Virus genome (UHGV): UHGV-0134521 | Source of the DNA: a virus | DNA length: 37,102 nucleotides | Reading direction: 5' to 3' (one strand) | Part shown: piece after piece, positions 9,310-26,531 of the stretch | Layout of the letters: each line of letters begins with the position of its first letter | Position numbering within the stretch: the first letter of the stretch is position 1 | Translations under genes and position numbers: made by a program | The notes under the pieces: generated by a model | The model's database searches: none | Told to the model about the DNA's origin: nothing | The model's input: only the letters and a program-made list of their open reading frames with translations

Positions 9310-9343
9310 ATCCATTGCGCCAGCTAATCCAATGGATTACAAT
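9310..9343 (+). promoter_or_regulatory. Candidate sigma70 promoter (-35 TTGCGC 9315..9320, -10 TACAAT 9338..9343) with 7-bp inverted repeat TCCATTG/CAATGGA (9310..9316, 9331..9337)
   Basis: Hexamers with 17-bp spacing read from sequence; inverted repeat brackets the spacer; about 25 bp upstream of cassette gene 1. Confidence 0.35.
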
Positions 9344-9365
9344 GTTATATTTACTGAGGGCATGT

Positions 9366-10022
9366 ATGAAAGAAAAAATGATAAATGAAATGCCATCGGC
9401 CCATATTAAGCAGTTAAGGGCCAAAACTGGTTTAACTCAAGAGGAATTTTGCGAGACTTTCGGTCTTAATCTCAACACCTATCGTCATTGGGAGAGGGGG
9501 GATAGAAAACCAACTGGCTCATCATTAGTTTTGCTAAAACTTATTGAGGAGTCTTTTCACGAAGTGCTATCAATTATGAAAAAAATCAAGGGGGATGGTC
9601 CAATAATGTCAGATGGTAAAACACTTATACTTAAATCACTTGAACAAGATAGATTTTTCACTTTTGAACGTTTTGTAAAAGAAAGTTCTTTTTTTTCTGC
9701 GGATGCCATTTGTGCTCTTATTAAAGCTAATGGTTTTCCTTATGTTTATTTTTCAAATAACCAAGGGGAACTTGTATTTTCAGCAGGTTATGAAATTGAA
9801 GATATGAAAGAAGTGTTCTGGGTCAAGAATGATGATAGAACATATGGTGGATCTCTCAAAACTGTCGTTGAAAAAACTTATAGTTCAATCTATGCGATAG
9901 AAGTTGACCTGCAAGATGCTGTTTATTGGACTCCGGAAATGAGAAACTCAAGAATAGTCGATATTACCGAGAAAACAGGAATTGAACGTGACTTTTTTAA
10001 CAATATTTTAAGGAATTGGTAG
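9366..10022 (+). CDS. Cassette gene 1: XRE-family HTH domain (HigA/MqsA-antitoxin-like) fused to a ~160-aa C-terminal domain of unknown function
   Basis: N-terminal KQLRAKTGLTQEEFCETFGLNLNTYRHWERGDRKPTGSSLVLLKLIEE is a typical XRE HTH; ATG 9366 after GAGGG; AT-rich. Confidence 0.65.
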   Translation: MKEKMINEMPSAHIKQLRAKTGLTQEEFCETFGLNLNTYRHWERGDRKPTGSSLVLLKLIEESFHEVLSIMKKIKGDGPIMSDGKTLILKSLEQDRFFTFERFVKESSFFSADAICALIKANGFPYVYFSNNQGELVFSAGYEIEDMKEVFWVKNDDRTYGGSLKTVVEKTYSSIYAIEVDLQDAVYWTPEMRNSRIVDITEKTGIERDFFNNILRNW

Positions 10023-10023
10023 T

Positions 10024-10695
10024 ATGCGTGGTAAACTAATCAGCTTTGAAGGTATTGATGGTAGTGGGAAAGGAACTCAATCGAAGCTGCTTTTCGAAAA
10101 ACTAAATGCAATAGGGGAAACGGCAAAGCTATTTAGTTTTCCTTGTTACGAGAATACTTTTTTTGGAAAAGAAATAGGTGCATTTTTGAGAGGTGAATTT
10201 GGCGGGATTAATGATGTACATCCTAAACTCGCTTCAATTTTATACGCAATGGATCGTTTTGAGAAAAGGCAAGAAATTGTAAGTTCCTTAGATCAAGGAA
10301 TTGTAGTAATTTGTGACCGTTATGTCGATTCTAATATCGCGCATCAATCGTCTAAACTTGCAGTTTCTCAGCAGAAGGAATTTATTGATTGGGTTAGTGC
10401 ATTAGAATATGAATTTAATAAAATGCCTGTGCCTGATTTAACATTTTTCCTGAATGTTCCTTTGGATATTTCAAAGGAAATGGTACTGAAGAAGAAAAAA
10501 AGAAGCTACACTGACTCCGAAGAAGATATACATGAAAGAGCATATGATTATTTAGAAAGAGTATTGTTAGCATACAATAAAATTGATTTCGGCACGCGCT
10601 GGAACTTAATTGAGTGCTGTAATAATAATAATCTGATGGATCCTGAGTCAATAAGTGATTTAATATTTAAAATTGTCATGAAAGGGCTTAGATAA
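10024..10695 (+). CDS. Cassette gene 2: thymidylate-kinase-fold P-loop NMP kinase-like protein, 223 aa
   Basis: FEGIDGSGKGTQ P-loop-like segment, CDRYVDSNIAHQS (Tmk DRY motif) and PDLTFFLNVPLDIS (Tmk PDLT motif); start 1 nt after gene 1 stop. Confidence 0.7.
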   Translation: MRGKLISFEGIDGSGKGTQSKLLFEKLNAIGETAKLFSFPCYENTFFGKEIGAFLRGEFGGINDVHPKLASILYAMDRFEKRQEIVSSLDQGIVVICDRYVDSNIAHQSSKLAVSQQKEFIDWVSALEYEFNKMPVPDLTFFLNVPLDISKEMVLKKKKRSYTDSEEDIHERAYDYLERVLLAYNKIDFGTRWNLIECCNNNNLMDPESISDLIFKIVMKGLR

Positions 10696-11615
10696 TGCAC
10701 GAGTTGTTGAGAAAAAAACACTCTAGGAATAGTTTCATTACTCTATTTGTTATAGTTGTAACATTAATACTGCTTCTTCGGTATGCTGTACTTCCTTATT
10801 TTTACCCTCCACAATCAACTGATTTTGGGGGCTTTATTGCGACATTATTAAATGGGCTATTTTCATCCTTAACAGTAACCTTCTTGATCGGTTTATTTAT
10901 GTTTTGGATTCAGCCGAAACCTGAAAATTATGCTAAAATAGAAATTGCATATCCTAAAGAATTACCAGAACTTTTCAATGTTGCGTTCCTTAAAACGGAA
11001 ATTTGGTATTATAAAGGTGGATGTGGAAGATATTTTAGAACAGCTACGTTACCAAATATGGCGAAACAGGCTAGATCAAAGTCACAGTCAAAAGAAATTT
11101 TGGTTGTTATCCTTGATCCAACTAATATTGATTTATGTGAAAAACACGCTATTTACAGAAGTGGTACAGCATCACAAGAAATTGAAATTAGGCCTTGGAC
11201 AACAGAGGAAGTTCGCGCTGAGTTGTTTGCAACGATTATTACAACGCTAATTACTCAAGCCAAAGAACCTTCATTAAGAATAAAATTATCATTATGCCCT
11301 CACTATTCATCTTTTAGGATAGATTTATCAGATGATTACGCTATTATTACAAAGGAAGATCGCAATTCTCCGGCCATTATATGTCATAAGGGGACTCATT
11401 TTTATAAATCTTATAAAGATGAAGTAATTTTGTCTCTAAACCAATCACGTAGTGTTCGTATGATAGATCAAGTTGATTTTACTCTAAGAGATATTGATGG
11501 CACGAAAGTTAAATCTTTGTTATCTGATGCTGGTTTAGATGATAACAATCTCACGCCGACTTTCTATGACAAGGTCGCGTCGTTATGTAAAGAGGCGAAA
11601 AATCCATATGCATGA
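10695..11615 (+). CDS. Cassette gene 3: membrane protein with two N-terminal transmembrane helices and a ~230-aa soluble domain, 306 aa
   Basis: Two hydrophobic stretches near the N-terminus (FITLFVIVVTLILLL; LFSSLTVTFLIGLFMFWI); start overlaps gene 2 stop (TAATG). Confidence 0.6.
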   Translation: MHELLRKKHSRNSFITLFVIVVTLILLLRYAVLPYFYPPQSTDFGGFIATLLNGLFSSLTVTFLIGLFMFWIQPKPENYAKIEIAYPKELPELFNVAFLKTEIWYYKGGCGRYFRTATLPNMAKQARSKSQSKEILVVILDPTNIDLCEKHAIYRSGTASQEIEIRPWTTEEVRAELFATIITTLITQAKEPSLRIKLSLCPHYSSFRIDLSDDYAIITKEDRNSPAIICHKGTHFYKSYKDEVILSLNQSRSVRMIDQVDFTLRDIDGTKVKSLLSDAGLDDNNLTPTFYDKVASLCKEAKNPYA

Positions 11616-12246
11616 TTATATGAATGAAATCTATCAAAAAATAACTAATAAAGAATCGTTCGATGTTAAACGTTTCTTTACTTGCTTGGTTGATAATTTT
11701 GATAATTTTGATCCTACTTGGCATGCATTGGGATTTATTCATTGCCGTTTAGCTCAGAATGATCAAGGGACTTTACGCTTACATATTTGGTTCAAAAATG
11801 ATTCACATCCTGCTGAACAGTTAGAAAAAATTCATGATCATAAATTCTCGTTGAATAGCTATGTGTTGTACGGTGCAATATGTAACGAGGTTTTTGAACT
11901 TATAGAAACGTCATCTGGAAAATATGATTACCAGGCCTATGCAGTTAAATATCTTGATAAAGGTTCAGAGTTAATCCCTTTAGCCACTTATTATAATGTT
12001 AGTGATGTATCTTCAAGTATAATAAGGGCTGGTTGTTATTATACGGTTGACTCCAGAGAGTTTCACCGATCATCACTTGTAAATAGTGAGATGGCGATAT
12101 CACTAGTGGCGACTTTTGAGCATAAAAATAAAGACCCTTTGACTTTGGTATCTCATGGGGGGAGTGAGTTTAAAATAAGAGATAAGGTTCCATTTGATAA
12201 GAACAAATGGGTGGAGATATTAAAAGAATACATATCAAAATTATGA
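11608..12246 (+). CDS. Cassette gene 4: hypothetical soluble protein, ~212 aa
   Basis: In-frame ATG at 11608 overlapping gene 3 stop by 8 nt; His-rich segments; no family recognised. Confidence 0.55.
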   Translation: MHDYMNEIYQKITNKESFDVKRFFTCLVDNFDNFDPTWHALGFIHCRLAQNDQGTLRLHIWFKNDSHPAEQLEKIHDHKFSLNSYVLYGAICNEVFELIETSSGKYDYQAYAVKYLDKGSELIPLATYYNVSDVSSSIIRAGCYYTVDSREFHRSSLVNSEMAISLVATFEHKNKDPLTLVSHGGSEFKIRDKVPFDKNKWVEILKEYISKL

Positions 12247-20194: not shown

Positions 20195-20588
20195 AGCAGT
20201 GCCTTATGTCCGTAATAACCCGGACAAACTGCATCTGTTTGTGGATAACGGTTCGCTGGTTGCCACCGGGGCCAGCTCCATGTCATGGGAGTACCGCTAC
20301 ACCCTGAACGTGGTGATTGAAGATTTCAGCGGCGACCAGAATCTGCTGATGGCCCCGGTTTTGCTGTGGCTGCGGGATAACCAGTCTGATGCCATCAATA
20401 ACCCGGCGTTACGGGAAAAGCTATTCACCTTTGAGGTGGATATTCTGCGCAACGATGTCTGTGATATCAGCCTGAACCTGCAGCTGACGGAGCGTGTGCT
20501 GGTCAGCACTGACGGAAGTGTGTCGAGCGTTGAAGCGATAACGGAACCCGATGAACCTGAAGAAATGTGGACGGTGAAACGTGGCTGA
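20157..20588 (+). CDS. R: Tail completion protein (gpR-like)
   Basis: P2 R-like sequence from GTG 20157 after AGGAG; the track ORF begins at an upstream TTG. Confidence 0.75.
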   Translation: MNKPQSLRHALNKAVPYVRNNPDKLHLFVDNGSLVATGASSMSWEYRYTLNVVIEDFSGDQNLLMAPVLLWLRDNQSDAINNPALREKLFTFEVDILRNDVCDISLNLQLTERVLVSTDGSVSSVEAITEPDEPEEMWTVKRG

Positions 20589-21030
20589 ACTGCAGAAAGT
20601 AGACGACTGGCTGAGTGCCTTGCTGGCGAATCTGGAGCCAGTCGCAAGAAGCCGCATGATGCGTCAGCTGGCGCAGGAACTGCGCCGGACACAGCAACAG
20701 AACATCAGGATGCAGCGCAATCCAGATGGCAGCAGTTATGAGCCGCGCAGAGTAACAGCACGCAGCAAAAAGGGGCGCATCAAACGTCAGATGTTTACAA
20801 AGCTGCGCACCACAAAATACCTGAAAACTGCCGCCAGCGCCGACTCTGCCAGCGTGCAGTTTGAAGGCAAGGTACAGCGCATTGCCCGTGTTCACCATTA
20901 CGGCCTGCGCGATCGCTTTAGCCGTAACGGCCCAGAAGTGCGCTATGCGGTGAGGAAGTTGTTGGGTATCAACGAAGAAGTGGAAACTTTAACTCAAGAC
21001 ATATTATTAATGTGGATATCCAGGAAGTAA
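20581..21030 (+). CDS. S: Tail completion protein (gpS-like)
   Basis: P2 S-like sequence; GTG start overlapping R stop. Confidence 0.8.
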   Translation: MAELQKVDDWLSALLANLEPVARSRMMRQLAQELRRTQQQNIRMQRNPDGSSYEPRRVTARSKKGRIKRQMFTKLRTTKYLKTAASADSASVQFEGKVQRIARVHHYGLRDRFSRNGPEVRYAVRKLLGINEEVETLTQDILLMWISRK

Positions 21031-21142
21031 TATTAGGTGATAAGGGAATGCGTAGATTCTTGCTAATTCCATGATCTTTCTCTTATTTTTTAATGCCGTG
21101 ATCTGATACATTGCCCTCTAGAGTTTGAGTTAGGAGGGTGTT

Positions 21143-21943
21143 ATGTCTGAAAAGTTAATTTTTTTATCCCATATAACAGAAGAAAAAGAATTAGCGAAAA
21201 TAATCAAAGATGCAATTGAAGACGAGTTTTCTGGATTCGTTGAAGTGTTTGTATCGTCAGATGGGAATACAATTAAAGCCGGTCAAAATTTCTTAAATGT
21301 TATTGAAAATGGGTTAGTAAATTGTATTGCTGCTATTTATCTGATAAGCCCAGAATCTGTCCAGAGAAGCTGGATTAGTTTTGAGTTAGGGGCTGTATGG
21401 GTTAGAAATGCTATCAGCCGGCAAAACGGCGGGCCAGAAATCCCTGCTATTCCTTTTTGCCACTCGGATATGACGTTTAGAGACTTGCCCCAACCTATCT
21501 GTAATCTAAATGGTATTGAAGCAAACCGATCTCATTCCTTGGAGTTTGCATTTAAGTCGATTCAGACCGCTGTTGGAGGAAAAGGACGATTGAGAACTGA
21601 TTTTGATGTTCTTGCCGAGAAAGTTAACATTTTTGAGAGAGATTATACAGTCTTCAAAAGTATAGGCGAAATTCTCGGTTTAATTGGTGTAGATAGCCAG
21701 CGTCGCGCACAATTAGTTCAGCTTGTTAATAGTTCAGCAGAGAATGAAGTTATAATTAAAACTGATACTAGGCAGGATTCAGCAGATATAATATTTAAAT
21801 TAGTTGATACTAAGTTAAGTCATTTCGCTAAATATAAAGTAACATCTTCTGGTTTAGGTATGGGACTTCAAGGCGCTTCTCCTTTCTGTGAATTTGAATT
21901 GAGAATGGATCGGAAAATACTCAGTGATTACTTGGCTCGATAG
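21143..21943 (+). CDS. TIR-like domain protein (N-terminal ~130 aa) with C-terminal domain of unknown function, 266 aa; moron between S and V
   Basis: LIFLSH...VEVFVSSDG...IAAIYLISPESVQRSWISFELGAVW follows TIR strand-helix topology including the S-x-W-x-x-E-L element; GGAGG SD; AT-rich. Confidence 0.55.
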   Translation: MSEKLIFLSHITEEKELAKIIKDAIEDEFSGFVEVFVSSDGNTIKAGQNFLNVIENGLVNCIAAIYLISPESVQRSWISFELGAVWVRNAISRQNGGPEIPAIPFCHSDMTFRDLPQPICNLNGIEANRSHSLEFAFKSIQTAVGGKGRLRTDFDVLAEKVNIFERDYTVFKSIGEILGLIGVDSQRRAQLVQLVNSSAENEVIIKTDTRQDSADIIFKLVDTKLSHFAKYKVTSSGLGMGLQGASPFCEFELRMDRKILSDYLAR

Positions 21944-21955
21944 TTTCTATTACCT

Positions 21956-21973
21956 TGTGTGAGGTGCCACACA
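21956..21973. promoter_or_regulatory. TGT-N12-ACA dyad (TGTGTGAGGTGCCACACA, extended palindrome TTGTGTG-N6-CACACAA) upstream of V
   Basis: Read directly from sequence; matches the P2 late-promoter activator motif. Confidence 0.5.
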
Positions 21974-21990
21974 ATTCCCTATATTACTAA

Positions 21991-22017
21991 AGCCTGCCAA
22001 TTTCTGGCAGGCTTTTT
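21991..22017 (+). terminator. Hairpin AGCCTGCC-(7 nt)-GGCAGGCT followed by TTTTT, ending 2 nt before V start
   Basis: 8-bp perfect stem plus T-run read from sequence. Confidence 0.5.
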
Positions 22018-22019
22018 CT

Positions 22020-22598
22020 ATGAACGCACAATTAACCGAAATCATGCGCCTTATCACCAACCTGATCCGCACTGGGGTAGTCACCGAAGTGGACAGGGAA
22101 AACTGGCTTTGCCGGGTGAAAACGGGCGAGCTTGAAACCAACTGGATCAGCTGGCTGACGCTGCGTGCCGGGAATGCCCGCACATGGTGGCGACCATCGG
22201 AAGGTGAGCAGGTGGTGCTGCTGAGTCTGGGCGGAAATCTGGAAACCGCCTTTGCGTTGCCCGCTGTCTATTCGAATCAGTTCGCGCCACCGTCGACGTC
22301 GGCAGACGCCTGCGTGACAGAACATCCTGACGGCGGCTGGTTTGAATACGAGCCCACCACCGGGCGCTGGTATGTCAGAGGCATCAAATCCATGGTCATT
22401 GAGGCTGCCGACAACATCACCCTGAAAACCTGTGAGTTTGTGCTGGAGGCTGACCGCACGCGTATTAACAGCGAAGTGGTGATCAATGGTGGCGTTACCC
22501 AGGGCGGCGGTGCGATGAGTTCTAACGAGATTGTGGTTGATGCGCATCAGCATACTGGCGTCCTGAAAGGCGGCGATACAACCGGAGGCCCGGTATGA
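22020..22598 (+). CDS. V: Baseplate spike protein (gpV-like)
   Basis: P2 V-like sequence. Confidence 0.9.
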   Translation: MNAQLTEIMRLITNLIRTGVVTEVDRENWLCRVKTGELETNWISWLTLRAGNARTWWRPSEGEQVVLLSLGGNLETAFALPAVYSNQFAPPSTSADACVTEHPDGGWFEYEPTTGRWYVRGIKSMVIEAADNITLKTCEFVLEADRTRINSEVVINGGVTQGGGAMSSNEIVVDAHQHTGVLKGGDTTGGPV

Positions 22599-23849: not shown

Positions 23850-24447
23850 TCTGCTGCCACCGGGTTCAACTTCACTGGAGCGCCGACTGGCGCAAACCTG
23901 TAGCGGGATTTCTGATCTGCAGGTGCCGCTGCGTGACTTGTGGAATCCGGCTGCCTGTCCGGTCAGCTTCCTGCCTTATCTCGCCTGGGCGTTCTCTGTG
24001 GATCGCTGGGACGAGGGCTGGACAGAAAGCGTCAAACGCCAAGTAGTGAAGGATGCTTTTTATATTCATCAGCATAAAGGAACCACCAGTGCCGTGCGGC
24101 GGGTGGTGGAACCGTTCGGATTCCTGATCCGCATTATTGAGTGGTGGCAGACCGGAGAAACACCGGGCACGTTTCGCCTGGATATCGGCGTGCAGGACCA
24201 GGGCATCACTGAAGATACCTATCTGGAACTTGAGCGGCTGATAAGCGATGCCAAACCATGTAGCCGTCACATGATCGGCATGTCCATCAATCTGCAGACC
24301 AGCGGTCCGCATTGGGTGGGGGCCGCCAGCTATCTTGGCGAAGAAATCACGATCTATCCGTATATCAACGAAACAATTATTTCTGGCGGCACCGCGCATG
24401 AAGGCGGGGCGGTCCATGTTATTGACACAATGAGAGTGAATCCATGA
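23842..24447 (+). CDS. I: Baseplate / tail protein (gpI-like)
   Basis: Position and overlap pattern; P2 I-like. Confidence 0.85.
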   Translation: MNSLLPPGSTSLERRLAQTCSGISDLQVPLRDLWNPAACPVSFLPYLAWAFSVDRWDEGWTESVKRQVVKDAFYIHQHKGTTSAVRRVVEPFGFLIRIIEWWQTGETPGTFRLDIGVQDQGITEDTYLELERLISDAKPCSRHMIGMSINLQTSGPHWVGAASYLGEEITIYPYINETIISGGTAHEGGAVHVIDTMRVNP

Positions 24448-26531
24448 GCACAAAATTTTATACCCTGCTGACGGATATTGGCGCGGCGAAACTTGCCAGC
24501 GCCGCCGCACTCGGTGTGCCGTTAAAAATTACCCATATGGCGGTAGGCGATGGCGGCGGAACATTACCAACGCCGGATGCAAAGCAGACTGCACTGGTAA
24601 ATGAGAAACGCCGGGCTGCGCTGAATATGCTCTATATCGACCCGCAAAACAGCAGCCAGATTATTGCTGAACAGGTGATCCCTGAAAACGAGGGTGGTTG
24701 GTGGATACGTGAAGTGGGCCTGTTTGATGAATCCGGGGCATTAATTGCCGTGGGCAACTGCCCGGAAAGCTATAAGCCGCAACTGGCTGAAGGCAGCGGG
24801 CGCACCCAGACCGTGCGCATGGTGCTGATTACCAGCAGTACGGACAATATCACCCTGAAAATTGACCCTGCCGTAGTGCTGTCAACCCGCAAGTATGTGG
24901 ATGACAAAATATCAGAGCACGAACAGTCACGACGTCACCCGGACGCCTCGCTGACCGCAAAAGGTTTTACTCAGTTAAGCAGTGCGACCAACAGTGAATC
25001 CGAAATACTGGCCGCAACACCGAAGGCAGTGAAGGCTGCATATGATCTTGCAGCAGGTAAAGCATCCGCCAGTCACACACACCCGTGGAGCCAGATAACG
25101 GATGTGCCTGCAGCTTCACTGACGGTAAAAGGCACCGTGCAACTCAGCAGCGCCACTAACAGCACGTCAGAAACGCAGGCTGCCACACCAAAGGCAGTGA
25201 AGGCTGCATATGATCTTGCAGCAGGTAAAGCATCCGCCAGTCACACACACCCGTGGAGCCAGATAACGGATGTGCCTGCAGCTTCACTGACGGTAAAAGG
25301 CACCGTGCAACTCAGCAGCGCCACTAACAGCACGTCAGAAACGCAGGCTGCCACACCAAAGGCAGTGAAGGCGGCATATGACCTTGCAGCAGGTAAGGCA
25401 CCTGTCAGTCACACGCACCCGTGGAGCCAGATAACGGATGTGCCTGCAGCTTCACTGACGGTAAAAGGCACCGTGCAACTCAGCAGCGCCACTAACAGCA
25501 CGTCAGAAACGCAGGCTGCCACACCAAAGGCAGTGAAGGCGGCATATGACCTTGCAGCAGGTAAGGCACCTGTCAGTCACACGCACCCGTGGAGCCAGAT
25601 AACGGATGTGCCTGCAGCTTCACTGACGGTAAAAGGCACCGTGCAACTCAGCAGCGCCACTAACAGCACGTCAGAAACGCAGGCTGCCACACCAAAAGCT
25701 GTGAAGGCTGTATATGACCTTGCCAATGGGAAACAACCTGCCGACGCCACACTGACCGCACTGGCAGGCCTTGCCACTGCGGCAGACAAACTTCCGTATT
25801 TTACGGGGAATGATACAGCCAGCCTGACAACCCTGACTAACGTTGGACGGAATATTCTGGATAAAGCAAGCACACAGGCGGTTATTCAATATCTTGGTCT
25901 GAGCGATGCAAGTGGATACGTTGGACGCTGGCTGAATACCCGGGTTTTCACCTCATCAGGTACGTACACCCCGACGCCAGGAACAAAACGGATCAGGGTC
26001 ACAATAACGGGCGGCGGTGGCGGAGGGGGCGGCTGCAAGGCTACATCCAATAATGAAACGTTTTTCGGTGCTGGCGGTGGGGCCGGTGGAACAATAATTT
26101 CAATAATGACCCCGACACAGAATAGTTATCCAGTCACTATCGGCGCAGGTGGGGCCGGTGGTGTTAGTGCGACGAACGGCACCAGTGGCGGGAATAGCGT
26201 ATTCGCATCGTTAATTGCTCCTGGTGGCGCAGGTGGCGGGAAAGTGGGAGTTACAAACACAAACGGCGGTAACGGAGGTGTGCCGAGTACTGGCGATATC
26301 CGCATCACTGGTGGAAATGGAGGCGACGGTCAGTCCGGAAATATCGGCGTCAGCGGTGAAGGCGGAACATCGCACTGGGGCGGCGGTGGACGCGCAGGCG
26401 CTGGCGGTGGTGTTAGTGGTAAGGCATATGGTTCAGGTGGCGGTGGCGCATACGATGCCGGTTATAGCGGAACCAGTATGACAGGCGGGAAAGGTGCCGC
26501 TGGGATTTGTATTATCGAGGAGTTTGCATAA
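24444..26531 (+). CDS. H: Tail fibre protein (gpH-like) with internal tandem 56-aa repeats and Gly-rich C-terminal region
   Basis: Conserved P2 H N-terminus (MSTKFYTLLTDIGAAKLA...), repeats containing SHTHPWSQITDVPA, C-terminal Gly-rich tract. Confidence 0.9.
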   Translation: MSTKFYTLLTDIGAAKLASAAALGVPLKITHMAVGDGGGTLPTPDAKQTALVNEKRRAALNMLYIDPQNSSQIIAEQVIPENEGGWWIREVGLFDESGALIAVGNCPESYKPQLAEGSGRTQTVRMVLITSSTDNITLKIDPAVVLSTRKYVDDKISEHEQSRRHPDASLTAKGFTQLSSATNSESEILAATPKAVKAAYDLAAGKASASHTHPWSQITDVPAASLTVKGTVQLSSATNSTSETQAATPKAVKAAYDLAAGKASASHTHPWSQITDVPAASLTVKGTVQLSSATNSTSETQAATPKAVKAAYDLAAGKAPVSHTHPWSQITDVPAASLTVKGTVQLSSATNSTSETQAATPKAVKAAYDLAAGKAPVSHTHPWSQITDVPAASLTVKGTVQLSSATNSTSETQAATPKAVKAVYDLANGKQPADATLTALAGLATAADKLPYFTGNDTASLTTLTNVGRNILDKASTQAVIQYLGLSDASGYVGRWLNTRVFTSSGTYTPTPGTKRIRVTITGGGGGGGGCKATSNNETFFGAGGGAGGTIISIMTPTQNSYPVTIGAGGAGGVSATNGTSGGNSVFASLIAPGGAGGGKVGVTNTNGGNGGVPSTGDIRITGGNGGDGQSGNIGVSGEGGTSHWGGGGRAGAGGGVSGKAYGSGGGGAYDAGYSGTSMTGGKGAAGICIIEEFA
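24949..25740 (+). repeat. Tandem direct repeat, 168-bp period, about 4.7 copies inside tail-fibre gene H
   Basis: The same 10-mer (ACCCGTGGAG) recurs at 25081, 25249, 25417 and 25585; copies 1 and 2 near-identical to each other, likewise 3 and 4. Confidence 0.85.

Follow-up and report, generated by a model that had tools for sequence, protein, structure and literature searches.

The closest described counterparts of the gene considered here are single-gene systems that respond to a phage protein. SpbK (YddK), which is carried by the Bacillus subtilis element ICEBs1, is a TIR NADase that is switched on by the phage portal YonE and causes abortive infection via NAD+ depletion (PMC11984713). Swarozyc (KpSwz) is likewise encoded by a single gene and becomes active when it assembles on a phage portal; it needs both its catalytic Glu and an auxiliary domain (bioRxiv 10.64898/2026.05.01.722283). 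The residues involved in catalysis have been mapped in AbTir, where mutating any one of S140, D167, W204, or E208 abolishes NADase activity, and where W204 is also needed for making 2'cADPR (PMC11374754). In P2-like phages, the position between tail genes S and V is one of three regions known for nonessential "moron" genes (PMC6823313), and P2 itself has orf30 there. This slot is a different locus from the P2 hotspot that Rousset et al. described in 2022, and neaT in CFT073 sits at the G-FI slot rather than at S-V.

Such an S-V slot is present in the virus genome UHGV-0134521, whose whole 37,102-nucleotide stretch constitutes the window analyzed here. Positions 21031-22019 are the exact gap between P2 gene S (tail completion/virion morphogenesis; 20581-21030, + strand) and P2 gene V (baseplate spike; 22020-22598, + strand). 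The left anchor was assigned from the ORF list, the way PGAP annotates this gene in E. coli D3, a Phage_tail_S Pfam match in related loci, and alignment, while at the right anchor, homology to the relatives restarts exactly at the V ATG. The sole long ORF of the gap, 21143-21943 on the + strand, starts with ATG and encodes a 266-aa TIR-domain protein identical to WP_001504072.1. Its GC content is 37.0%, compared with 53% for S, 57% for V, and about 55% for the flanks, in keeping with the first-pass annotation, which had described the interval as holding a single AT-rich gene with a strong Shine-Dalgarno sequence of its own (AGGAGG at 21132-21137, + strand, 5 nt upstream of the ATG by direct reading). 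GC begins to fall while still within S, roughly 70 nt short of its stop codon (from ~20960); since this last portion of S is both AT-rich and diverged, the left boundary of the cassette lies inside the 3' end of S. A hidden-ORF search of the S-V interval gave no further ORF of note, and no Rfam family was found in it (a GlmZ-like match reached 22.7 bits against a gathering score of 60). Given its 378 homologues and an N-domain dN/dS of 0.04-0.05, the ORF is a real gene rather than a chance reading frame.

Comparison across genomes indicates how this slot is used. Matching S/V flanks occur in 1040 of 5426 complete E. coli genomes, and in a spread sample of 60 of these records, the slot is mostly empty; when filled, it carries SIR2, FRG, DUF2971, DUF6216, or hypothetical genes. 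In phage 500465-1, the slot is empty and measures 68 bp, and other cargo is seen in Cartapus, P2, and various E. coli genomes. The junction is thus variable, with empty, TIR-filled, and other-cargo states, just as the first-pass annotation had stated. The TIR gene itself is rare, being present in 22 of the 5426 genomes, and its reading frame is intact in all but one of these copies, the exception being split by IS1. Four diverged alleles of the TIR cargo were found at S-V in P2-like prophages, and the similarity of the cargo does not follow that of the backbone: at one locus (L008), V has 96% nucleotide identity and the TIR gene 63%, whereas at another (L026), the values are 80% and 82%. Cassettes are therefore exchanged at this slot. 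Because closely related phages lack the TIR gene, it is dispensable for the phage, and it is a P2-like moron: a nonessential insert of foreign composition that lies between S and the late promoter PV and is missing from close relatives. Homology of its product to P2 Orf30 was considered and rejected (BLASTP E 1.8).

The N-terminal two-thirds of the protein is a true TIR domain. Residues 6-90 match Pfam TIR_2 (PF13676; STIR clan) at 32.4 bits, above the gathering cut-off of 28 (E 1.5e-7), and TIR_2 is matched by all 30 family members tested. Furthermore, the family profile retrieves the solved bacterial TIR NADases 7uxr and AbTir, and when the AlphaFold2 model of the protein (pLDDT 92.2) is compared with the PDB by Foldseek, the best 50 matches are all TIR domains, with a probability of 1.00; these include SPARTA, AbTir, RPP1, SARM1, TLR2, ThsB, and BtpA. 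Profile and structure comparisons consequently agree on a TIR fold, and not on some other fold, for the region to which a TIR topology had been attributed. Of the two kinds of profile that had been suggested at that stage, TIR matches the 266-aa protein, but the ThsB-type Pfam DUF1863 does not. Similarly, the conserved Glu had been placed correctly, but within an S-x-W-x-x-E-L element whose spacing is off by one; the residues are in fact S76-W77-I78-S79-F80-E81-L82, giving W-x-x-x-E. S9, D40, W77, and E81 (codon 21383-21385, + strand), the last being the predicted catalytic Glu of W77-x-x-x-E81, do not vary among 119 sequences drawn from several phyla, over which 34 positions in all are invariant, and they align with AbTir S140, D167, W204, and E208, respectively. 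On these sequence grounds, we infer that the protein has NADase activity. In addition, since W77 is the counterpart of AbTir W204, a signaling product might also be made.

The two parts of the protein have evolved very unevenly. The conserved N-terminal module (aa 1-170; 21143-21652, + strand) consists of the TIR fold and the first half, also conserved, of the long helix that connects it to the rest of the protein. It is followed by a hypervariable C-terminal domain (aa 171-266; 21653-21940, + strand), the proposed sensor/specificity module, which is confidently predicted to be a small alpha/beta domain of two helices and then beta-alpha-beta-beta-alpha. Among 118 homologues, the median identity is 67% in the TIR part versus 16% in the C-terminal domain, even though the length and predicted fold of the latter are constant across the family. 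Purifying selection on the gene is strong; dN/dS in the C-terminal domain is 0.20-0.23 versus the much lower values of the N-domain, and because this is still below 1, positive selection is not demonstrated. The C-terminal domain had been described at first as being of a type not recognized, and neither fold nor profile searches with aa 171-266 gave an informative match. The best Foldseek hit in BFVD, an unnamed 105-aa viral protein at E 1e-3, is uninformative, and a C-terminal profile run against 1.84 billion representative proteins returned 17 matches, each of which was a member of this family, a gene call truncated at its N terminus, or noise from repeats. Consequently, there is no sign that the domain has been shuffled onto other effectors.

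Homologues were inspected in 14 genomic contexts from Enterobacterales, Vibrio, Aeromonas, Pseudomonas, Halomonadaceae, Bacteroidota, and Streptococcus. The TIR gene is AT-rich against most of the hosts examined, and carriers of the family include marine Vibrio, Halomonadaceae, Flavobacteria, other environmental Bacteroidota, and soil E. coli, while clinical isolates occur among the carrier strains. About half of the contexts are chromosomal and have no phage genes nearby. In Yersinia, the gene is found at another tail junction, and in a Streptococcus prophage, it lies just downstream of the late activator and upstream of terS. The neighbors of the distant homologues, compared with one another and with PADLOC and Pfam, have no gene in common; no neighbor is shared across the 14 contexts, and none of the contexts has a ThsA-type effector gene adjoining the TIR gene. 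In Klebsiella aerogenes, a decayed prophage has kept the TIR gene beside a fragment of gene S, next to Mrr and GmrSD genes, and this retention was counted as selection for a benefit to the host. In the search for partners, the K. aerogenes neighbor of 266 aa proved to be an unrelated nucleotidyltransferase. The Vibrio homologue adjoins a PD-T4-3-like gene and the Aeromonas homologue a DUF4365/Aga_REase-like gene; these defense-type neighbors, along with the SIR2 family genes in the same E. coli slot, were counted in favor of a defensive role.

How the cassette is expressed is less straightforward. Six upstream regions, of which five belong to S-V-slot alleles, were aligned; they reveal a block conserved among the slot alleles, CATGATCTTTCTCTTATTT, at 21070-21088 and a candidate extended -10 promoter (TG at 21104-21105, TACATT at 21107-21112; the whole feature spans 21070-21112, + strand). 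The element TGnTA(A/C/G)ATT survives in four of the five S-V-slot alleles, including those whose proteins are no more than 54-63% identical, and it is from this conservation that the candidate is put forward. A scan for consensus promoters gave no sigma-70 promoter upstream of the TIR gene, and a fold scan of the stretch from the S stop codon to the gene gave no terminator. Thus, transcription may occur mainly with the late operon. Downstream of the gene, a TGT-N12-ACA dyad (21956-21973, + strand) marks the Ogr-type activator site of PV. Its center is 55.5 nt upstream of the V ATG, a spacing identical to that in the P2 record (activator site 10239-10266, transcription start at the V ATG, 10308), and it is kept in both empty and filled slots. 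A Rho-independent terminator with an 11-bp stem, a 5-nt loop, and a T run is located at 21989-22017 (+ strand), about -31 to -3 of PV. The hairpin has a free energy of -18.4 kcal/mol (z -6.7; none of 200 shuffles folds as well); a comparable one is seen in the Salmonella allele, and none is seen in the empty slot. This terminator would end the TIR transcript together with any late-operon read-through from O to S.

Taken together, these results have led to a model that we consider somewhat more probable than its competitors combined, namely that the gene encodes a self-contained, prophage-borne anti-phage protein in which a TIR NAD+-cleaving domain is joined by a long helix to a diversifying sensor domain. 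In this model, the lysogen would produce small amounts of the protein, which would stay inactive. Upon infection by a rival phage, an abundant and probably oligomeric structural protein would bind the C-terminal domain and so cluster the TIR domains, as TIR catalysis usually requires. The ensuing cleavage of NAD+ would arrest or kill the cell, thereby blocking spread of the invader, and the various C-terminal alleles would each recognize different phages. We infer trigger binding by the C-terminal domain, oligomerization, abortive infection, and lysogen expression in this scheme. A bolder extension, which is rather unlikely, is that such proteins form an unrecognized class of one-chain pattern-recognition receptors, whose hypervariable domain of about 95 aa directly reads a phage or satellite structural protein and turns on a nearly invariant TIR enzyme, and whose alleles, differing in specificity, are traded as cassettes by P2-like phages at S-V. 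Co-expression with the late genes and action against competitors, for instance P4-like satellites, in the prophage's own lytic cycle belong to this idea; without an upstream terminator and with a terminator embedded in PV, the cassette would also be expressed along with the late genes.

Other explanations have to be weighed against the self-contained anti-phage protein. The TIR protein might instead be an orphan Thoeris-like signal generator whose TIR domain detects infection and whose product, a cyclic ADPR isomer or a related nucleotide, acts on an effector encoded elsewhere in the host genome. There are in fact weak matches to ThsB models (E 1.6e-3 for the 266-aa protein; the ThsB model PDLC00423 is matched by 21 of 30 family members, with a best E of 2e-5), W77 aligns with the AbTir residue required for 2'cADPR, and ThsB proteins likewise pair a TIR domain with variable sensing surfaces. 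However, the ThsB matches are partial and limited to the core TIR region, no ThsA-type or other common neighbor accompanies the gene in the 14 contexts, and, the cassette having only one gene, a signal generator would be useless after transfer without a linked effector. The absence of a common partner favors a standalone effector, which is better supported than an orphan Thoeris component, and the latter is unlikely. Another proposal, less likely still, is that the gene benefits the phage during the prophage lytic cycle: after late read-through from O to S, its product would be aimed at co-infecting competitors or at P4-like satellites, or would alter NAD+ metabolism or immune signaling in the host. 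This would suit the orientation of the gene, which is that of the late genes, the presence of a strong terminator only on its 3' side with none between it and the S stop, its location among the tail genes, both in the four S-V alleles and at another tail junction in Yersinia, and its position between late activator and terS in Streptococcus. It fits poorly, however, with the chromosomal contexts, about half of those examined, that lack nearby phage genes, with survival of the gene beyond prophage decay in K. aerogenes, with its dispensability to closely related phages, and with a conserved extended -10-like element that suggests a promoter of its own.

The two remaining explanations are both very improbable. 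Morons of P2-like phages sometimes encode virulence factors (PMC9122126; PMC3573123), and the product could be a host-directed TIR protein, like TcpC or BtpA, that disturbs Toll-like receptor signaling in animals. The TIR domains of BtpA and TLR2 are among the fold matches, and clinical isolates are among the carriers, but the family is widespread in marine and environmental bacteria and in soil E. coli, a hypervariable C-terminal domain is better suited to an arms race with phages, and no secretion-related domain appeared in the family or fold searches. Finally, rarity in E. coli, the copy broken by IS1, and the emptiness of most slots in the 60-record sample could be taken to mean that the gene is inert, hitchhiking cargo or is decaying and currently without function. 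Nevertheless, the low dN/dS in the N-domain (about 0.2 in the C-terminal domain), the 34 invariant positions shared across phyla, and the intact frame in 21 of the 22 E. coli copies are at odds with this, and the inert-cargo reading is already disfavored by these signs of selection.

If the self-contained anti-phage protein is confirmed, then a compact, one-gene TIR immune sensor of 266 aa would join the known prophage-borne defenses, and the P2 S-V junction would become a third slot for defense cargo, beside the hotspot of Rousset et al. The combination of a near-invariant catalytic domain with a small hypervariable one would amount to a natural experiment on how TIR activity is coupled to pathogen recognition; if so, swaps of C-terminal alleles should re-target specificity. 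P2-like prophages occur frequently in E. coli, Salmonella, and Klebsiella, and prophage cargo of this kind can restrict therapeutic phages.

With regard to systems already described, the defense-system models recognize nothing in the protein beyond its TIR domain (the best PADLOC match, 8.9e-7, is partial), NCBIfam has no equivalog for it, and our literature search found neither a mention of WP_001504072 nor a tested system with this architecture. P2 orf30 occupies the same slot, between the S stop and the PV activator site, and is also nonessential and AT-rich, but it runs on the other strand, bears no sequence relationship to the TIR gene, and has no Pfam match. In addition, P2 has its O-operon terminator directly after S, and this is absent at the TIR locus. 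As for CBASS and Pycsar, CAP12-PCTIR_TIR scores only 15.9 bits, under the cut-off of 24.7, no cyclase gene is present in any examined context, and the C-terminal domain matches no SAVED, STING, or cNMP-binding domain. Thoeris ThsB is a TIR protein that responds to phage infection, as is proposed for the protein here, and the two show weak HMM similarity in the TIR core only. SPARTA is a system in which NADase activity is activated by oligomerization, and among the Foldseek matches to the full model, its TIR-APAZ proteins rank first (E 2e-6 to 1e-4), in alignments of about 168 columns that cover the TIR domain and the next helix. Unlike SPARTA, however, the 266-aa protein lacks an APAZ domain (the C-terminal domain has no APAZ match), and no short Argonaute (pAgo) gene adjoins it, its neighbors being tail genes S and V. 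Among solved proteins, those nearest in sequence to the family profile are NADases of the AbTir/BtTir type (PDB 7uwg, 8g83, 7uxr), which share with the protein the residues FxSH, D, and WxxxE, on which NADase and cyclase activity depends, but have an N-terminal coiled-coil and no C-terminal variable domain, and are not known as prophage cargo.

The type of defense proposed is thus already known, although the TIR family itself seems not to have been tried experimentally. Like SpbK, the protein would be the product of one gene on a mobile element, combining a TIR NADase with a small, noncatalytic, phage-binding domain. The PADLOC spbK model matches the TIR region at E 1e-4, over profile positions 148-235 of 308 only. 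However, the order is reversed in SpbK, which has an N-terminal sensor and a C-terminal TIR domain, its sensor is unrelated to the C-terminal domain here, and its carrier is a conjugative element of a Gram-positive host rather than a P2-like prophage. In Swarozyc, the catalytic domain is DUF4062, whereas here it is a canonical TIR_2; DUF4062 gave no match to the 266-aa protein at E up to 10, nor to the 30 members at E ≤0.01, and the C-terminal domain of about 95 aa, with its lack of an informative fold match, differs from the Swarozyc auxiliary domain. Nevertheless, a single Swarozyc polypeptide begins with a TIR-like NADase and ends with an auxiliary domain, an order paralleled in the product of the gene at S-V, and by analogy, Swarozyc and SpbK may serve as precedents for a single-gene mechanism that is activated by a phage trigger.

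The interval 21031-22019 precisely fills the space between P2 gene S (20581-21030), the left anchor of the slot, and gene V (22020-22598), the right anchor, running from just after the S stop codon to just before the V ATG. Its sole substantial ORF (21143-21943, + strand) encodes 266 aa, is preceded by an AGGAGG Shine-Dalgarno sequence (21132-21137), and has a GC content of 37.0% versus 53-57% in S and V; the single AT-rich cargo gene described here by the first-pass annotation is real. A prophage of E. coli D3 that is integrated beside ssrA and shows the usual P2 gene order carries this insert with 99.9% identity over 21031-22019. The fall in GC content begins within S, ~70 nt ahead of its stop codon (20960-21030), in a stretch that is AT-rich and diverged from relatives, and similarity to empty-slot relatives is lost in the final ~25 codons of S and returns exactly at the V ATG. 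Consequently, the cassette replaces the 3' tip of S together with the entire intergenic region, carries its own form of the S C-terminus, and has a recombination boundary inside an essential tail gene. It also supplies its own copy of the upstream elements of P_V, the late promoter of V.

In the P2 reference record, the O-operon terminator lies directly 3' of S, orf30 is on the minus strand, and the P_V activator site is followed by a transcription start at the V ATG itself, so that the V mRNA is leaderless. In the window, a TGT-N12-ACA dyad for the activator Ogr (21956-21973) is centered 55.5 nt from the V ATG, a spacing identical to that in P2. Between the dyad and the ATG, a terminator with an 11-bp stem (21989-22017; -18.4 kcal/mol, z -6.7) ends the TIR cassette inside the P_V core region; no such hairpin is present in the empty slot. 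Since no terminator-like fold was found between S and the TIR gene, read-through from the late operon into the gene is likely. A consensus scan upstream of the gene revealed no sigma-70 promoter; the alleles in the S-V slot share an upstream block and, at 21104-21112, a TGnTA(A/C/G)ATT element, which could be an extended -10 promoter.

The protein already bears a generic TIR label in RefSeq (WP_001504072.1, named by PGAP 'toll/interleukin-1 receptor domain-containing protein'), and both profile and structure comparisons bear out the proposal of an N-terminal TIR domain. Pfam TIR_2 matches aa 6-90 with 32.4 bits (curated cut-off, 28) and is matched in 30 of 30 family members tested; furthermore, a profile built from 119 homologues retrieves the solved bacterial TIR NADases 7uxr and AbTir. 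In a Foldseek search of the PDB with the AlphaFold2 model (pLDDT 92.2, pTM 0.84), all of the top 50 matches are TIR domains, among them SPARTA TIR-APAZ, AbTir, plant RPP1/RPS4/RUN1, SARM1, TLR2, and ThsB. The family-invariant residues S9, D40, W77, and E81 align with AbTir S140, D167, W204, and E208, each of which abolishes NADase activity when mutated, E208 being the Glu of the WxxxE motif (PMC11374754). Thus, the conserved Glu had been placed correctly at the outset, but the spacing had not: the motif is W-x-x-x-E rather than S-x-W-x-x-E-L. In addition, P101-x-x-P104-x-C106-H107-S108 (nt 21443-21466), after strand beta-D, is invariant in 119 of 119 homologues and lies outside the positions matched to AbTir or other solved TIR sequences.

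In the model, the TIR fold is predicted to extend to ~aa 145, followed by a long helix (154-180) and a compact helix-beta-alpha-beta-beta-alpha unit. The C-terminal region, modeled by itself, has a pLDDT of 93.8 and no informative structural neighbor (best Foldseek match to viral models, E 1e-3, to an unnamed protein), and a profile of the C-domain (aa 171-266) searched against 1.84 billion representative proteins found only its own family, truncated gene calls of that family, and repeat noise. This domain is therefore, as first supposed, of an unrecognized type. The homologue search yielded 378 proteins; the best 120 of these are mostly 263-283 aa (three exceptions, 230 and 294 aa), 45-91% identical, and come from Enterobacterales, Vibrio, Aeromonas, Pseudomonas, Halomonadaceae, and Bacteroidota. 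Conservation is sharply bipartite, with a median identity to the window protein of 67% over residues 1-170 versus 16% over residues 171-266. Comparison with the two closest alleles gives dN/dS values of 0.04-0.05 in the N-domain and 0.20-0.23 in the C-domain; thus, the C-domain evolves four to five times faster, yet both domains are under purifying selection. In E. coli strain 4012, a blood isolate, IS1 splits the gene after ~codon 178 (locus L030, 713-2289), where the conserved TIR module meets the variable C-domain; this copy is a natural knockout or truncation.

Four diverged alleles of the gene occupy the S-V slot of P2-like prophages: that of the window, which recurs in 20 complete E. coli genomes, and those encoding P0003 (metagenome, 86% identity to the window protein), P0005 (Salmonella, 63%), and P0013 (E. 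coli, 271 aa, 54%). Relative to the window, the P0013 prophage has 96% nucleotide identity in V versus 63% in the TIR gene, and the P0003 prophage 80% versus 82%, a mismatch between backbone and cargo that argues for cassette exchange at this slot. Elsewhere, a 51% allele in a Yersinia kristensenii P2-like prophage (L017, 5458-12803) lies at another tail junction, 3' of U; there the tail module is rearranged and a Fic-YhfG pair occupies the S-V slot. In Klebsiella aerogenes, a 91% allele adjoins a 117-aa S remnant within a decayed element that has Mrr and GmrSD genes close by; the arrangement looks like cargo domesticated after decay of a P2-like prophage. At these loci (L023-L025, 2426-3801), an integrase remnant, a transposase, and Mrr or GmrSD genes border the allele. 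In prophages of Streptococcus agalactiae, a homologue of 32% identity lies between the gene for the late activator and terS; in phage phiGBSVK-C_GBSInt4 (L028, 5001-5753) it is single-gene cargo of 250 aa, with the identity extending over aa 1-180, and probably belongs to PHROG 29177 (no assigned function), which the window protein matches with an E value of 2.7e-22. Chromosomal copies were found in Pseudomonas, Vreelandella, Aeromonas, Vibrio, Bacteroidota, and one other genome; these share no neighbor and have no phage genes close by. Two of them have defense-type neighbors, one a PD-T4-3-like gene, the other a DUF4365/Aga_REase-like gene.

The S/V flanks were matched in 1040 of 5426 complete E. 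coli genomes, of which a spread sample of 60 records was inspected. Most slots in this sample are empty, and the rest hold SIR2, FRG, DUF2971, DUF6216, or hypothetical genes, so that the junction is indeed variable, as had been claimed; the DUF6216 cargo is that of the E. coli B/BL21 lineage. This content suggests that S-V is a third defense-cargo slot of P2-like phages, one not covered in the hotspot literature found. A member of the present TIR family occurs in only 22 of the 5426 genomes, and no close copy of the gene was found among 50,697 phage records. A second AT-rich block (9315-12246, + strand, ~33% GC) lies just before portal gene Q, at the P2 defense hotspot of Rousset et al., where E. 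coli D3 carries other cargo. Its four ORFs encode an HTH/Xre protein (235 aa), a thymidylate-kinase-like protein (Pfam PF02223, 2.4e-24; PADLOC candidate PDC-M51B, 2.3e-10), and two family-less proteins (306 and 235 aa). The tail-fiber gene H (24444-26531) contains 4.2 copies of a 168-bp (56-aa) tandem repeat (25010-25723, 97% identity), followed by a Gly-rich C-terminal region.

Given all of this, the initial reading of foreign TIR cargo with an extra C-terminal domain is supported, and the most likely model, proposed by analogy and with somewhat better than even confidence, is one in which the protein is a self-contained, trigger-activated TIR NADase: the variable C-domain would sense the trigger, activation would proceed through induced oligomerization, and the active enzyme would cause abortive infection. 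It is unlikely that the protein instead generates a signal acting in trans, and less likely still that it functions in the prophage's own late cycle, e.g., against satellites. A host-directed virulence TIR is very improbable, as is inert cargo, which is contradicted by the selection on both domains. What makes the protein noteworthy is the combination of a hypervariable C-domain lacking an informative fold match with allele exchange at a tail-gene slot.

No defense-system model (PADLOC 2023; NCBIfam 2026) names the protein, nor was a paper naming it found in the literature search. Partner genes or domains required of a Thoeris, SPARTA, CBASS, or Pycsar effector are missing; the match to SpbK is limited to its TIR part, the domain order being reversed, and neither the window protein nor the 30 family members tested match the DUF4062 of Swarozyc. 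The best placement would be with the single-gene TIR sensor-effectors. The proposed mechanism mirrors those of SpbK and Swarozyc, both characterized systems of a single gene: SpbK is switched on by a phage portal protein (PMC11984713), and Swarozyc, with a DUF4062 domain and a C-terminal auxiliary domain, is likewise portal-activated.
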